Shown: positions 38,888 to 46,910, counted from the first letter of the stretch. The stretch is 64,000 bases of DNA from Oligoflexia bacterium (GCA_020847095.1 JADLCR010000088.1:46871-110870); one strand, 5' to 3'. Notes: generated from the sequence alone by a model not told the origin. Numbers and translations: made by a program.

Positions 38888-38964
38888 GCGGGTTTAGCTC
38901 AGTTGGCTAGAGCGGTACCTTGCCAAGGTACAGGTCGAGGGTTCGAGCCCCTTAACCCGCTCCA
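38888..38964 (+). tRNA. tRNA-Gly (anticodon GCC)
   Basis: Hand-folded cloverleaf: acceptor GCGGGTT/AACCCGC, D-stem GCTC/GAGC, anticodon stem GTACC/GGTAC with loop TTGCCAA, T-loop TTCGAGC, and an encoded CCA. Confidence 0.93.
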
Positions 38965-40981: not shown

Positions 40982-40992
40982 TCAAACGAAAC

Positions 40993-41020
40993 ACAACGGC
41001 CCCCGAGCAGGGGCCGTTGT
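40993..41020. terminator. bidirectional terminator hairpin between convergent genes
   Basis: acaacggcccc-gagca-ggggccgttgt. Confidence 0.45.
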
Positions 41021-41042
41021 GAAATACAATTCAACTTTTTAA

Positions 41043-42338
41043 TTAATGAGTACGGTCAGCTAAAAATTTGGCCTTCTTAACCGCTTCGCCAACATTCAAG
41101 AAACCGCCGCTTGATACTTTGTCGGTAAGAAAAGTCTTCTTTGTGCTCGTTTCTAGTAAAATAGCTTTAACTTCGTTCCATTTTAGATTGGGGTTAGCTG
41201 CTAACATGAGCGCAGCCGCACCGGCGACGTGCGGTGACGCCATCGAGGTTCCACTTAAATACTGAAACCACCCCTTACTCACAGTGTTTCTTAATGGGGT
41301 ATCTAAAGAATAAATGGTATCGCCAGGGGCCACAATATCGACGCTCACTTTGCCGTAGTTAGAAAAGCCCGCGAGCTCCCCTTTATCATTGTAGCTTGCT
41401 GCAACTGAAACAATGTTATCAAGATCATAAGCCGCCGGGTACATAGGAGTCTTGTCGGCGTTGCTACTATCATTGCCAGCAGCCGCTACAAATAGCATTC
41501 CTTTGTCCATGGCGTACTTGATCGCATCATAAAGGGCTGGGTTTGCTTCGTCACTTCCCCAACTGCAATTAATGACTCTTGCACCATTATCCGCAGCGTA
41601 CACGATTGTTTTAATTGCGGCTTCGTCAGTTCCAGAACCATCGGCACCTAGAAATTTAACTGTCATAATGCTTGTGTACCAATTGACACCAGATATTCCG
41701 GACTTGTTCCCACCAACCGCTCCAATGGTGCCCGCTACGTGGGTGCCATGATAATGATTTTCATTGGGCGACGGTGAATTGGTCTCAAAGTTATAACCAT
41801 TCACGTCATCAATGTACCCATTGCCATCGTCATCAATTTTGTTTTTAGATTTATCTTTTCCGTTGGCGTCTTTTCCGAATTCTCCCGGGTTGACCCAAAT
41901 ATTATCGCCAATATCAAAATGCTTCATGAAGGTTCCGGTGTCGGATACGGCCACAACGATCTTTCGATCGCCTTGAGTGATTTTCCACGCCTCAAAAGTG
42001 TTTGAGGCCTTTATCCCCCAAGTGCCTCCGGCCTCTGATTCCATTTGGGAGAGCGTAGGAACGGAGTCGTTCGAAACCAAACGAACTCGTCCATTTCTTG
42101 CGATATACAGAATTTCTCCGGCAGATTTTTCGCCGATTCGGCTCACCGGAAGGCCTTGCCCCTTAATCACCGCCATATTTAGCTGAGGAATAAATGTTTT
42201 GACCGACTGAAATCCATCGAGCTCTTTTAGAGCTTTAATTCCTTTGGCCGTATCTCCACGAAACCGGACAATATATTCCGCGGCACTTCCAACATTGCTG
42301 ATGAGAATTAAAATTAACCCCACAAGACCTGCTCGCAT
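41043..42338 (-). CDS. secreted subtilisin-like serine protease (peptidase S8)
   Basis: VAVSDTGT, HGTHVAGT and GTSMASPHVAG. Signal peptide from the internal Met MRAGLVGLILIL. The ORF track extends to 42407. Confidence 0.88.
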   Translation of the reverse strand: MRAGLVGLILILISNVGSAAEYIVRFRGDTAKGIKALKELDGFQSVKTFIPQLNMAVIKGQGLPVSRIGEKSAGEILYIARNGRVRLVSNDSVPTLSQMESEAGGTWGIKASNTFEAWKITQGDRKIVVAVSDTGTFMKHFDIGDNIWVNPGEFGKDANGKDKSKNKIDDDGNGYIDDVNGYNFETNSPSPNENHYHGTHVAGTIGAVGGNKSGISGVNWYTSIMTVKFLGADGSGTDEAAIKTIVYAADNGARVINCSWGSDEANPALYDAIKYAMDKGMLFVAAAGNDSSNADKTPMYPAAYDLDNIVSVAASYNDKGELAGFSNYGKVSVDIVAPGDTIYSLDTPLRNTVSKGWFQYLSGTSMASPHVAGAAALMLAANPNLKWNEVKAILLETSTKKTFLTDKVSSGGFLNVGEAVKKAKFLADRTH

Positions 42339-42446
42339 GCCCCCTCCTTGGCTCGTTGTTAGAAACTCGACTACGGATAAAAGCCTAGCATGAAAGGGGC
42401 AAAACAATAATGAAGCGGAAAGAAAACTGGACGAACGGCGGGTTGG

Positions 42447-43166
42447 TTAAGGTCGGTCAGTAACGATCGCGGCTTCACCATCTTCATTCAGAAGCCTCTG
42501 GAGATAACGATAGGGAAGCCATGACTGCGGATAGTTAGTTCCCCAACTATTGATGATCTTAACGGCTTGTCTCTCGTCGCTTGCGCCGATGATACAAACG
42601 CAATGTCCTCGATTTCGCTCGTGCCGACCGAGTCCATTTTTTGCGATCCAATAATCTCCTGATATGAGCTCGGGCGAATCCATGTTGTTATACCATTTAA
42701 CGCCAATTGTGACGGGCGTTCCTTTTGAAATGGCGGTGCGAATCTGATCAACATTCTCAGCCCACCTGTTTTCAAGGATCCCTTCCTTTTTATTGGGTCG
42801 GTAGCGCCGTTGGCCCACCACTCGCACATGTCCAAGGCCTCTGAGAATGTCCATGGCCGCCATAACGGTTGTGCCATTTTGATCACCAGGGTTTGTGTCA
42901 GGCCAAATATCCACCTCTTTTGCCATATTCCAAAGCCAACGGGCATCATAATAACGCCGATTCAGAATAGACATCATCCAAGATGAGCCAAAGCCAACGC
43001 AGGCGCCTTCAGAACCTTGATCATATTTCGAAATATAATTTTTGTTAACTTTCAGAACTTTTTCAACGCGGGTCGCGGTCCTTGGAACCAAAGCTGAATA
43101 AGCCCAAAGTCGCTGGTGATCCGTATTATAAGGCGGCTTCCAACCCAGAAGTTTCTTCTTTCCCAT
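42447..43166 (-). CDS. papain-like cysteine peptidase (C1-like), no signal peptide or prodomain
   Basis: Gln six residues before the Cys in QGSEGACVGFGSSW. HCVCIIG and NSWG with papain-like spacing: Cys to His about 135 residues, His to Asn 17. N-terminus MGKKKLLGWKPPY. Confidence 0.6.
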   Translation of the reverse strand: MGKKKLLGWKPPYNTDHQRLWAYSALVPRTATRVEKVLKVNKNYISKYDQGSEGACVGFGSSWMMSILNRRYYDARWLWNMAKEVDIWPDTNPGDQNGTTVMAAMDILRGLGHVRVVGQRRYRPNKKEGILENRWAENVDQIRTAISKGTPVTIGVKWYNNMDSPELISGDYWIAKNGLGRHERNRGHCVCIIGASDERQAVKIINSWGTNYPQSWLPYRYLQRLLNEDGEAAIVTDRP

Positions 43167-43171
43167 CTGCG

Positions 43172-43978
43172 CTAGCCCACTTTCCTAATAGAAATCCGAT
43201 TCTTTAACATGGGGTTGAGAAATCTCTCTTTATCTTGAAGTACTTTGATAGCCTCAGGCTCCACTATCATTCCTGTGGCTTCACTCAGTTTGTCGCTGAG
43301 CGCTTTTGGATCTTTATCTACAAATTCCTCAACATCTTTAATTCCAGCTTTATCAAATAGTTTGCTGATCTCGCGTGGAAGCACTTTCGAAGCCACAAGT
43401 CCGGACTTGCCAATTTTAGTTTTCCAATCCACCTGGCCGTTAACCTTTTTTAACGCCTCTAAACCACCGGCTTTATTTGTAACCCGTTGAAAATCATCGA
43501 CTGAGAAAATTCGATTCTTTTTAAGGGTCTCTATTGTTTCCGCAGGTAAATCCAGTGACTCGATAGGTTCGTGCTTTTCAAGCATCAAAGGCACTTGTGC
43601 ACCAACAACAGGTCTCACTTTCAATCTGAATTGGCCAACACCAGGGCCCGCCTTTTCGCTATCAGCAACGCTAGCAACAATTTGCCCCAAATTGTCTACA
43701 CGTGCCTTGATTGGCAGAACAATGTCGATTTCATCCACCAAAAAAGCGGCGGTTCCGTTTTGATATTTTGTCAGTTCATTTTGCACGCTTGAGAGAGATA
43801 GGGCAATGCTTTCTCCTAGTTCGTGCAACACAACTTCTCCAGTCGTGATGTTTGGACCGCCGGAGTTACCAGAATTTGGGGGAGTGGTAGGGTCCCCGAA
43901 TCGTATCAATGACTGGTTCTTTGCTCGACGTTTGATTGCTTTCTTAGCTATTTTCTTCCGTGATTTCATCTGTCCCAC
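43172..43978 (-). CDS. hypothetical protein with poly-basic N-terminus and RFGDP motif
   Basis: MGQMKSRKKIAKKAIKRRAKNQSLIRFGDP. No signal peptide. Shares its N-terminal architecture with the 45521..46693 product. Confidence 0.5.
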   Translation of the reverse strand: MGQMKSRKKIAKKAIKRRAKNQSLIRFGDPTTPPNSGNSGGPNITTGEVVLHELGESIALSLSSVQNELTKYQNGTAAFLVDEIDIVLPIKARVDNLGQIVASVADSEKAGPGVGQFRLKVRPVVGAQVPLMLEKHEPIESLDLPAETIETLKKNRIFSVDDFQRVTNKAGGLEALKKVNGQVDWKTKIGKSGLVASKVLPREISKLFDKAGIKDVEEFVDKDPKALSDKLSEATGMIVEPEAIKVLQDKERFLNPMLKNRISIRKVG

Positions 43979-44279
43979 TCTCTGTCATCGTCTCTACGGG
44001 CCTTTCCAACCGCCTAACCCCGATTCCAATTCCGGCCGTCATGCGCTCGGATGGTATAAGATCAAGCGTCGATGATACTCCCGCTGAATTTTTTGCAACA
44101 GTAATTGCTGAGATATTGAATCCTAGTTGAATTCGATTCCATACGAAATGACGAGTGGGTGTTCCCACTTGATCTGAAATGAGTTTTGATCTCTCGGCAG
44201 ATTGATCTAACTGGTACTGTGAATCAACGATATGAGCTGCGATTGCGCCCAAAACATTTTGTGCCTTTCGCGACATCAC
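43944..44279 (-). CDS. hypothetical small protein (uncertain)
   Basis: 111-aa ORF. Its start overlaps the upstream gene stop (ATGA) and its end overlaps the next gene start by 35 nt. Confidence 0.35.
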   Translation of the reverse strand: MMSRKAQNVLGAIAAHIVDSQYQLDQSAERSKLISDQVGTPTRHFVWNRIQLGFNISAITVAKNSAGVSSTLDLIPSERMTAGIGIGVRRLERPVETMTESGTDEITEENS

Positions 44280-45502
44280 GCAACCTCGCGATCGGTTATG
44301 GGCTGAGGAATCTCAAGGTGATAGGCCGGATCCTCTTTTGGCTTCAAAAACTTACTGATTCGCTTTTCTTCGGCTACTACTCGCTCAAATGCCACACGAT
44401 CTTTTAGAGATTTCGGATCAATATCAATAACATTGAATTTTTTTGGATCTGCAAGATGTAAAGAAACAGTGCTAGGTCCGATTTCATTTATCTTTCGTTC
44501 CATTTGCTGAATGACTTCTGCCCGCTGTAGATCTCGCGCAATTCCCTTTTCGTAAACTTCTATGATTTTTCTCCCGGGTCCCTTATAGAGTCCTTTCATG
44601 TGTGCCACGCCATGCTTTGCGCAATTGTCATACATGATACGTGCCTGGTCTGCAGGCTTTCTTGCCGTGCTCGTGATGAATGCTCCATGCTCATTACAAG
44701 CTACTAGAATATCTTCCAGAACTCCGAGCGAATAGGTTGAAACCAACTCTTTCTTTGCATTTGGGCCAAACTGAATTTCAATTTTCGCACGTGATTTATT
44801 CAAAGCATTTCTGGTTGACGGCGGAATAGCATTGCCTTCGCGAATCTCTGGGCCGCTAGATTCGATGGGAGCATTGAGTAAATCCATGATGGTTACAGAG
44901 GGGGCAACTGAATGATGTTTGAGCACGTAAACGGCGTCATTAAAAAACTTAATAAACCGATCGCAATGCTCACCAGTGCCTATCGGGTACTGTTTCATTT
45001 TCCATCTGTTTCGAGCCCCGTTGTTGCGCTTAACGCCTCCTGCGTTGTAGGCAGCTGCAACGCGTGGAGGATCAAATTCAGTAACCCTTGACTGAAACGC
45101 GATATAAGCCGTCCCAGCTTTAATCGAATTTCTCGGCTCAAAAAGCCATTCACGACTCACGCTTTGTCTCAGGGTATCGCTCGCCGTTGAAATCAGAGTC
45201 TGCATCAGTCCTGCGCTGATCCGGCTCGGCGTTGCCGAGTCCGACCGAAAACCTGGCTCTTCCCGAACAGCCCTGGGGTTTCCGCTTGATTCCGTACAAA
45301 TGGTGGCGATGATAAGTTCACAGGGAACACGATACTGAGAAGCTATATCGTTGATTATTTCACAATAGGAGTCCCAAACACGTCCAACGGTTCGTGGAGC
45401 ACCTCGAGTGCGCTCCACGCCCGACCCTTCCACCTCGATACCGTCTCTCGTTAAACGCCATCGTGTGCCATTATTAAAATTGTGAAATCGTCCAAGCGAC
45501 AT
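44276..45502 (-). CDS. lytic transglycosylase (SLT domain) fused to an uncharacterized C-terminal domain
   Basis: Family-1 LT motifs TESSGNP, AGLMQ and AYNAG in the N-terminal half. About 200 aa of C-terminal sequence of unknown type. No signal peptide. Confidence 0.72.
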   Translation of the reverse strand: MSLGRFHNFNNGTRWRLTRDGIEVEGSGVERTRGAPRTVGRVWDSYCEIINDIASQYRVPCELIIATICTESSGNPRAVREEPGFRSDSATPSRISAGLMQTLISTASDTLRQSVSREWLFEPRNSIKAGTAYIAFQSRVTEFDPPRVAAAYNAGGVKRNNGARNRWKMKQYPIGTGEHCDRFIKFFNDAVYVLKHHSVAPSVTIMDLLNAPIESSGPEIREGNAIPPSTRNALNKSRAKIEIQFGPNAKKELVSTYSLGVLEDILVACNEHGAFITSTARKPADQARIMYDNCAKHGVAHMKGLYKGPGRKIIEVYEKGIARDLQRAEVIQQMERKINEIGPSTVSLHLADPKKFNVIDIDPKSLKDRVAFERVVAEEKRISKFLKPKEDPAYHLEIPQPITDREVA

Positions 45503-45520
45503 GTGCTTTTGAGATCCGTG

Positions 45521-46693
45521 TTAAATGAGTACCGCAATTTTCTTCGCCAAAACGCCCCATGTCACGGTCACGTTTACCAATGTTGGCTTGTCCTTTTTTT
45601 CTTCGTATGAATATCCAGATCGGGTAATTCTAAAAATGATAGAACCATCATCATTGGCTGGCTGAGAATCGGCAACATAGGATTCTGTTGTGCCTTGCAA
45701 CTTCTTATAAGTAATTCTCATAAACGGATCATCCACATTGACTGTGATTTTTTGCCCTTTATTTCCAACATAGCCAACTTCGTTTCCACCGGTGCCGCCT
45801 TCGGTTCGAGGTGCCTTTTTCAAAACAGCCTCAAATTGATGGTAGCGCCCAATGATCACTGGTTCAGCTGGAACCGTAGGATCATTTGAGACTCCAGGTT
45901 TGGTGACGTCGCCTGATCCTGTCAAATCCACGGCCATCGTTGCGCCCGATTGGATAAGAAAGGGCTTTGGAGCTTCAATTTCTTTTCGCGGCTCAAGAGT
46001 AGCTTCCATATGCATATTGCCAACGGAAGATGTGACAGTGGTGCTCGAATCAGTTGAGCTGCTGTAATTGCTATTATTGTACCCAAGGCTTCCGCTGATG
46101 CTACCGCCGGTCATTCCATAACTGCCATTCACACCAACTTTGAAAGACTCAGATCGGCCTTGGATTTTAAATCCAGTATCAGCATCAAAAGATGCCACTT
46201 TCATATCGGCCTGAAGATGAACTCGGCTCCATTGATAAGAAACTGGTGGTAAAAAGCTAATGACGGGAATCTGACTCTTGATCACTGTTGGAGTGTCGTA
46301 AGTCCCGTCGTCTTTAACTTTTTGCTCTATAATTGTTGGAACTTCTATGTTTGTTTTCGAGAGCTCTTTTGCAGTTTCTACCATGTTTTTATCAAGTGCT
46401 TCTTGAGCATCGGCCACGGCATGACCAATTTTTCCGACGAATTCTCCAAATGCAGGAGTCACATTTGATAACCCAGCAGCCGTGCGCTTAGCCGCATCGG
46501 CGGCCCTAGGGTCACCAAATCTAAGTGCTCCTTTGTTTTTGGCACGAGCTTTTGCTTGTCGCTTCAAGTCTTCTACGATCGCCAAAGCTTCTTTTGTGTC
46601 CTTTGGGAGAGCTTTTAAAAGCTTCGCCGTTTCCTTTTTCACAAATGATGCACCGACAAAATTTTTCTTAAGCTTTCTTGCTGGTTTTCCCAT
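45521..46693 (-). CDS. hypothetical protein with poly-basic N-terminus, RFGDP motif and Gly/Ser-rich beta-rich body
   Basis: MGKPARKLKKNF...KGALRFGDP. Ser/Thr/Gly-rich central segment. No signal peptide. First gene of the five-gene module. Confidence 0.55.
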   Translation of the reverse strand: MGKPARKLKKNFVGASFVKKETAKLLKALPKDTKEALAIVEDLKRQAKARAKNKGALRFGDPRAADAAKRTAAGLSNVTPAFGEFVGKIGHAVADAQEALDKNMVETAKELSKTNIEVPTIIEQKVKDDGTYDTPTVIKSQIPVISFLPPVSYQWSRVHLQADMKVASFDADTGFKIQGRSESFKVGVNGSYGMTGGSISGSLGYNNSNYSSSTDSSTTVTSSVGNMHMEATLEPRKEIEAPKPFLIQSGATMAVDLTGSGDVTKPGVSNDPTVPAEPVIIGRYHQFEAVLKKAPRTEGGTGGNEVGYVGNKGQKITVNVDDPFMRITYKKLQGTTESYVADSQPANDDGSIIFRITRSGYSYEEKKDKPTLVNVTVTWGVLAKKIAVLI

Positions 46694-46910
46694 TTTTTTG
46701 GACTCCTTTTTGAAAAACGATTATTTATTGACGATCTTGAACACTCTGAACTATCGGCGCATCCAAAAAAATATGAACCCTCAACTCGGCTTTTTTATTA
46801 AATCAATCGCTAACCCCGACTTTGGCTCAACACATCATGAACATCGACTCGCTACCAGGTAGTGCCAAGTTTTTTTGCTTTTATGCTGAAAAAATCATAA
46901 GTTCCCGAAG

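Follow-up and report, generated by a model that had tools for sequence, protein, structure and literature searches.

A recurrent operon of three paralogous proteins, a lytic transglycosylase and an exchangeable protease: a possible pore-and-lysin module shared across phyla

A pore-forming protein held latent until a neighbouring protease releases it is an arrangement that has been described more than once in bacteria. Pepco proteins (Trypco1/2), the closest comparison for the locus considered here, are about 117 aa long, with an amphipathic helix at the N-terminus and with beta strands, and assemble into 9-10-mer beta-barrel pores once a serine or cysteine protease encoded nearby has cut off a charged tail (Evans et al., bioRxiv 10.1101/2025.11.14.688446); together with their proteases they make up defence modules (Kaur et al., eLife 2020, PMC7159879; Evans et al., 10.1101/2025.11.14.688446). 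Bacterial gasdermin operons, as cited in the same preprint (10.1101/2025.11.14.688446), also place a latent pore-former beside its activating protease. In this study we describe a block of five minus-strand genes, g1 to g5, at positions 42447-46693 of a 64,000-nucleotide stretch from an Oligoflexia bacterium (GCA_020847095.1 JADLCR010000088.1:46871-110870), which we call the window. The block recurs in many phyla, and may serve the regulated lysis of the cell that carries it.

A first-pass annotation, made from the sequence alone, had taken the block for a single module of tightly packed, co-directional genes, and the open reading frames (ORFs) bear this out: g1 (45521..46693, 390 aa), g2 (44276..45502, 408 aa), g3 (43944..44279, 111 aa), g4 (43172..43978, 268 aa) and g5 (42447..43166, 239 aa). 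Its tally of three overlaps and two gaps was in error, as five genes have four junctions (+18, -4, -35 and +5 bp) and only two pairs overlap. It was right that the proteins are leaderless: no signal-like N-terminus and no transmembrane segment is seen in any of the five (the top 19-residue Kyte-Doolittle mean, 1.63, falls in a C-terminal strand of g1), whereas the adjoining S8 protease does have a signal-like N-terminus.

The g1-g2-g3-g4-g5 order was found again in about 25 distinct loci belonging to at least eight phyla, with carriers in Bacteroidota, Acidobacteriota, Chloroflexota, Actinomycetota, Dormiibacterota, Spirochaetia, Gemmatimonadales and Methanosarcina, and with three cultured actinomycetes among them (Planotetraspora kaengkrachanensis, P. 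phitsanulokensis and Herbidospora mongoliensis). Fifteen of these loci come from a scan of one genome per species; locus ORFs were searched with the five window proteins, and additional loci from contig look-ups and metagenomes agree on the order. Because the same gene order recurs in so many phyla, the block is conserved far beyond chance. All-against-all clustering of the flanking ORFs yielded no further family common to the loci. Within the block, g1, g3 and g4 are present in every locus that is complete across it (g3 was detected in 22 loci by hidden Markov model, HMM), g2 is missing in three loci (two actinobacterial metagenome-assembled genomes, MAGs, and Methanosarcina), and a protease occupies position 5 in about half of the complete loci. 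The Methanosarcina version has neither enzyme and keeps the non-enzymatic genes only. Sequence identity across phyla is about 50% for g2 and 47-56% for g5, against roughly 35%, 22% and 30% for g1, g3 and g4. A word-indexed search recovered only 12 relatives of g1, and an exhaustive profile search 207 clusters at 50% identity among 1.84 billion representatives; exact-sequence look-ups of g2 and g1 (P0001) returned no match.

The first reading had found no operon name that fitted, and our searches agree: no family in Pfam, NCBIfam, PHROGs or PADLOC describes the module, the last three give nothing for g1, g3 or g4 apart from a chance-level PglX match for g3 (E 0.039) among the anti-phage components of PADLOC-DB 2.0, and literature on DUF2589, on DUF4332 and on transglycosylases in connection with defence or pores held no description of it. 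We conclude that the block is a real operon without a name, which recurs from actinomycetes to an archaeon and has clearly spread by horizontal transfer. This distribution sits poorly with the predatory role that had been proposed at first, since its carriers include non-predatory actinomycetes, Chloroflexi, Acidobacteria, Spirochaetia and a Methanosarcina. Nor is the idea of a delivered "enzyme set" supported, as the enzymes are dispensable or replaceable (g2 absent from three loci, the protease often absent or swapped) and the conserved core, g1/g3/g4, is non-enzymatic.

Profile comparisons show the three core proteins to be paralogues that have one predicted domain in common, an amphipathic helix followed by amphipathic beta strands, to which each adds an appendage of its own. 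In g1, a charged leader that varies among relatives (Lys/Arg-rich, residues 1-62) precedes the core (residues ~78-250; 45944-46462), where a long amphipathic helix leads into beta strands and a Gly/Ser/aromatic-rich beta-hairpin region; the appendage is a C-terminal Ig-like domain of invasin/intimin type (residues ~251-390). g3 is essentially the core alone, a helix with the pattern 'A.AQ..LD' and amphipathic beta strands, ending in a short acidic C-terminal tail. The N-terminus of g4 is variable, being a Lys/Arg-rich leader in the window and zero to five transthyretin-like (CarboxypepD_reg-like) repeats elsewhere; its core (residues ~47-123; 43610-43840) comprises a helix and three strands, which an AlphaFold2 (AF2) model places as a helix at H51-71 and then the strands, and its C-terminal part holds two helix-hairpin-helix units (residues ~136-268). 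The g3 profile aligns with the g1 core at a probability of 84% (P 7.6e-6), and the g4 core with g3 at P 5e-4 and with the g1 core at P 0.004. All three pairwise alignments fall in one register, through the 'A.AQ..LD' helix and the strands that follow, and in a control of 52 profile slices, taken from all alignments in both directions, the true core slices come out on top. An HMM built on the g1 core alone also matches g3 proteins (E 1e-4 to 8e-3).

The leaders of g1 and g4 have a further similarity that does not extend to the family. The first-pass annotation had noticed an RFGDP motif in two of the proteins, 30 to 55 residues in, and it is indeed present in g1 (residues 58-62, slightly beyond that range; 46508-46522) and g4 (residues 26-30; 43889-43903), and in no other six-frame window ORF of at least 50 aa. 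It lies within a 19-residue stretch that is similar between the two leaders (K..K.RAKN....RFGDP; local score 61, with 44 the highest of 500 shuffles) and absent from g1 and g4 homologues in other phyla. We regard this lineage-specific stretch as a candidate processing site or targeting signal common to g1 and g4. RFGDP was also considered as a general cleavage or target motif and rejected, since it is not conserved outside this genome. The observation that three of the five proteins begin Met-Gly holds with a proviso, because for g4 it needs a GTG start: from that codon the longest ORF is 268 aa and overlaps g3 by 35 bp, whereas the public annotation begins at an ATG three codons later (start region 43967-43978), giving 265 aa and a 26-bp overlap. 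A Lys-rich stretch likewise stands at the start of g5.

How far do these core proteins resemble Pepco? Both are built on a small domain with an N-terminal amphipathic helix and amphipathic beta strands, and the g4 core has the same order of secondary structures. Helix amphipathicity is 0.38-0.46 here and 0.42 in SsPepco, and the strands alternate in hydrophobicity. Both are encoded beside a serine or cysteine protease of varying catalytic type, and g3 (111 aa) is close in size to SsPepco (117 aa), each ending in a charged tail. Using the SsPepco sequence from the preprint supplement (10.1101/2025.11.14.688446), which matches Pfam Trypco2 (PF19631) at 5e-18, and a Trypco2 profile of only four Streptomyces sequences, we found the g4 core aligned over 50 collinear columns at P 0.0015, with slices of it ranking first and second of 52 (24.4 and 21.4; unrelated maximum 17.4). 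The g3 and g1 cores are not significant against this profile directly, and are linked to it only via g4 and g3. The comparison is underpowered, as attempts to enlarge the profile returned no Trypco2 relatives from a metagenome scan and only seven Streptomyces copies from plasmids. There are also plain differences. Pepco has one such protein where this operon has three paralogues, two of which carry large appendages (Ig-like and double helix-hairpin-helix), and g1 has in addition an insert of about 40 residues and a Gly/Ser-rich hairpin. The protease here is small and stand-alone, without a STAND, Avs or FGE sensor, and is missing from half of the loci, and a peptidoglycan hydrolase lies within the operon.

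Other families and systems offer more distant comparisons. Within the g1 core, the first 100 residues, which hold the helix and the first strands, align weakly to positions 2-99 of the 154-position profile of DUF2589 (PF11655), a family without known function that is mentioned in passing in the literature found; seven of 76 g1 relatives match it (best E 7.7e-6), whereas window g1 itself, at 14.5-16.9 bits, stays below the gathering threshold of 23. The gasdermin-protease operons are reported to follow the same logic of a latent pore-forming protein and an activating protease, but no family search gave any similarity to gasdermin, and the domain here is much smaller and triplicated. Phage holin-endolysin cassettes resemble the block in co-encoding a leaderless, phage-type muralytic enzyme with small, non-enzymatic, possibly membrane-breaching proteins in tightly packed, overlapping genes. 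The block differs from them in lacking a transmembrane holin or spanin, in its non-phage setting, in including a protease, and in that the putative membrane-active proteins are soluble alpha+beta proteins.

The fifth position of the operon is, when occupied, always a protease. In the window this is g5, whose identification as a papain-like enzyme stood up well: Q50, C56, H188, N206 and W208 are invariant in eight sequences from five phyla, and the catalytic residues (Cys56 at 42999-43001, His188 at 42603-42605) are intact. Its nearest solved relative is the C1A protease xylellain (3OIS, E 4.8e-6), and it matches phrog_16701, "peptidase", at 3e-21. Pfam Peptidase_C1 gave no match, and the only Pfam hit was a weak one to Peptidase_C39_2 (E 0.021). 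The further label of a "eukaryote/virus-type" protease was overstated. The g5-type papain fold fills the position in at least nine loci, a bona fide Pfam Peptidase_C1 that is distant from g5 (g5 HMM E 1.7e-5) fills it in metagenomic locus L047, and in L049 and L069 it is taken by a trypsin-like, chymotrypsin-fold protease with a GDSG motif, the two being 45% identical to each other. The types are unrelated or only distantly related. Subtilases of the S8 family also recur around the block: one follows g5 in the window and in L013, one precedes g1 in L054 (adjacent to g1 and not fused to it, as judged with the core-only g1 HMM), one lies beside the block on the opposite strand in L019, and in P0088 and P0140 S8 domains are fused N-terminally to g1-like domains. 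Such swapping of the catalytic type, while the position stays fixed, speaks for a protease that acts on the module's own proteins and not on an external target.

The second gene encodes, as first proposed, a lytic transglycosylase fused to an uncharacterised domain. The SLT domain (44999-45358), which lies in the N-terminal part (residues 1-200) behind a conserved 45-residue extension, matches Pfam SLT (PF01464) at E 1.1e-16 (60.9 bits; gathering score 21.3). Its catalytic residues are intact: E71 of the CTES/TES motif, the catalytic Glu, does not vary among 12 homologues, and AGLMQ and AYNAG are conserved as well. The C-terminal domain (residues ~236-408, about 170 residues; 44279-44797) has no match in Pfam, in PHROGs or among PDB sequences. 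In an alignment that takes in its viral relatives, S278, R281, S347, H349 and D360 are invariant and Q286, D391, H395 and E397 nearly so, and this pattern of Ser, Arg, His and Asp with a nearly invariant Asp, His and Glu makes the domain look like an enzyme. We had considered a LAS/M15 zinc peptidase, on a by-eye likeness of motifs (S..R, S.H..D, D...H.E), and dropped the idea: 12 relatives gave no Pfam match, a 19-sequence profile found no match in the PDB, and hhalign against E. coli MepK gave P 0.65.

Both halves of g2 also occur separately in viral contigs of IMG/VR, the SLT half at 45-54% identity and the C-terminal half at 25-45%. The viral C-terminal domain (L030-L045) either stands by itself, in proteins of 160-180 aa, or forms the C-terminus of larger ones of about 750 aa, and among its carriers there was one PHROG match, to phrog_3108, of unknown function, on the N-terminal part. 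The C-terminal domain is a new phage-borne family outside Pfam. The halves are separable inside the module too, since in L047 (1366-2010) g2 is a 214-aa protein with the SLT half alone. The nearest two-domain counterpart we met is Tse4, a type VI secretion system (T6SS) effector of Acinetobacter that is described as a bifunctional lytic transglycosylase-endopeptidase with the transglycosylase N-terminal; the C-terminal domain of g2 has no detectable similarity to known peptidases, and its setting is not that of a T6SS.

Taken together, these features lead us to favour, tentatively and with somewhat less than even confidence, the view that the block is a horizontally spread autolysis module of the carrier cell, in which a protease-licensed pore is combined with a wall hydrolase. 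Following this view, g1, g3 and g4 would oligomerise into a membrane-perforating beta-barrel in the manner of Pepco/Trypco2, perhaps after the co-encoded protease (g5 in the window; Peptidase_C1, trypsin-like or S8 elsewhere) had licensed them by clipping a leader or tail. The membrane lesion would then admit the leaderless, phage-type hydrolase g2 to the peptidoglycan, and the cell would lyse. In function, the module would be a chromosomal analogue of holin and endolysin for regulated self-lysis, be it in abortive infection or for the release of cell contents. Methanosarcina is an archaeon without murein, and the loss there of g2 and the protease fits an action on the producer's own envelope. 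More doubtful again is the fuller proposal that g1/g3/g4 constitute a new branch of Pepco/DUF2589-type pore-formers, assembling a hetero-oligomeric barrel within a sensor-less protease-pore-lysin suicide or lysis module that is exchanged across phyla and that dropped its murein-specific parts in Methanosarcina.

Several observations weigh against this view. The similarity to the Trypco2 profile is weak (a probability of 17%, from four Streptomyces sequences), and the Pfam Trypco2 model matches neither the g4 core, g3 nor the g1 core at E up to 10, nor any of 14 g3 and 15 g4 relatives at E up to 1. The claim is for this reason that the core proteins may work like Pepco, and not that they belong to it. 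No solved structure matches the g4 core, and AF2 modelled the g1 core poorly as a monomer. Nine complete loci (L006, L007, L009, L014, L016, L018, L048, L050 and L067), about half, are without a protease, so that proteolytic licensing either is not universal or is provided in trans. The module contains no sensor domain. Moreover, going by what is known of holins and pinholins, a barrel of Pepco size would be too narrow to pass a folded hydrolase of 45 kDa, and decorations of Ig-like and transthyretin-like type belong more typically to extracellular or virion proteins.

Those same decorations give the next reading its appeal. Perhaps g1, g3 and g4 form a decorated ring or fibre in a non-lethal assembly of the envelope or wall, with g2 opening gaps in the wall as VirB1 or FlgJ do and the protease maturing the subunits. 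Surface structures typically bear Ig-like and transthyretin/CarboxypepD_reg-like repeats, machines that span the envelope come with SLT enzymes of their own, g2 has weak matches to IagB and to a flagellar transglycosylase, and many loci are without a protease. We nevertheless consider such an assembly unlikely, because no version of the block has an ATPase, a membrane protein or an export signal, the block is only three to six genes long, and the archaeal version has neither enzyme. Alternatively, a phage cassette of virion-associated or lysis type may have been domesticated here or survive as a remnant, with g1 a decorated structural protein, g2 a lysin of virion or endolysin type and g5 a maturation protease. 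Phages do carry both halves of g2 and g5-like peptidases, leaderless Ig-domain proteins are common on virions, and the module has clearly been passed on horizontally. Of the phage-derived lysis cassette that the first-pass annotation had offered among its possibilities, the notion of lysis comes nearest to the view we favour; that of a prophage cassette fares worse, and we think it quite improbable. Relatives of g1 are absent from 2.9 million IMG/VR contigs, g1, g3 and g4 have no PHROG, viral loci with a g2 half never carry g1, g3, g4 or g5, the flanks are ordinary chromosomal genes with no phage genes in common, and the GC content of the block is that of its surroundings. Very improbable, finally, is an exported antibacterial or predatory effector set that delivers wall hydrolase and protease into prey or competitors: the combination of a peptidoglycan hydrolase with a protease in an Oligoflexia MAG and the existence of bifunctional transglycosylase-endopeptidase T6SS effectors speak for it, but the proteins have no export signals, searches of the five against Pfam, NCBIfam and PADLOC gave no secretion-system or effector family and the flanking genes listed include none, no immunity-like gene is conserved, and the carriers of the module include non-predatory phyla as well as an archaeon in which the non-enzymatic genes alone are kept.

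In the window, the intergenic region upstream of g1 (46694..46910, minus strand), next to which lies a divergent plus-strand gene, is the presumed promoter region; as inspection found no match to the sigma-70 consensus within it, its promoter function is putative. A Shine-Dalgarno-like AAGGAG (46703-46708) stands 9 nt 5' of the g1 ATG, and g2-g5 have no clear ribosome-binding site of their own, which is consistent with translational coupling. The S8 subtilase gene (41043..42407, minus strand; Pfam Peptidase_S8, 1.9e-61; probable start Met23, 42339-42341) begins 39 bp downstream of g5, and no strong terminator was found in the interval between them. Going downstream from the block, a convincing stop signal first appears past this gene, as a strong hairpin resembling an intrinsic terminator (40992..41021, minus strand; a 13-bp stem with nine G-C pairs, then a T-run), so that six genes may be transcribed together. 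Farther on, about 3.5 kb from the downstream end of the module, is a single tRNA-Gly(GCC) gene (38888-38964).

Elsewhere, the neighbourhoods of the module are varied. An expanded variant on a Gemmatimonadales chromosome (L020, 8630-19800) and a metagenome contig (L063, 6731-14585) holds three g1 paralogues, g2, a g3-like gene and large uncharacterised proteins (422 and 568 aa in L020, 856 aa in L063; no Pfam match where scanned), with a divergent g4 in L020. On a JGI contig (P0003), the module stands beside a TIR_2 protein, an rve integrase, two trypsin-like genes and a CHAT protease, surroundings that look like a defence island; one further locus adjoins a PIN toxin-antitoxin pair and NOV_C. 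In an Anaerolineae MAG (L046, 2374-5642), genes for a BTAD/NB-ARC STAND protein and a TPR protein run divergently from the module, directly beside it, and their products could be a dedicated regulator or sensor. The small upstream genes of L001 and L046 are unrelated to each other, and other loci sit among housekeeping genes. As hints to the role of the module, the TIR/CHAT, PIN/NOV_C and BTAD/NB-ARC neighbours are not conclusive.

Should the lysis model prove wrong, a strict gene order, a domain present three times over and a protease that can be exchanged still point to a coherent system that is absent from the libraries and literature searched. Its new features are the decorated pore-like domain in triplicate, the wall hydrolase integrated into the operon, and the phage-borne domain, itself new. 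The three cultured actinomycetes that carry the module make it directly testable. If the model is true, it would provide a function for a set of hypothetical proteins that are rare and yet present in many phyla, and for the phage-borne domain at the C-terminus of g2. It would also extend the logic of the protease-activated pore, as in Pepco, gasdermin and EACC1, to a system of several paralogues that is coupled with degradation of the wall, and would amount to a holin-independent form of programmed lysis, built from soluble beta-barrel formers and an endolysin-like enzyme.

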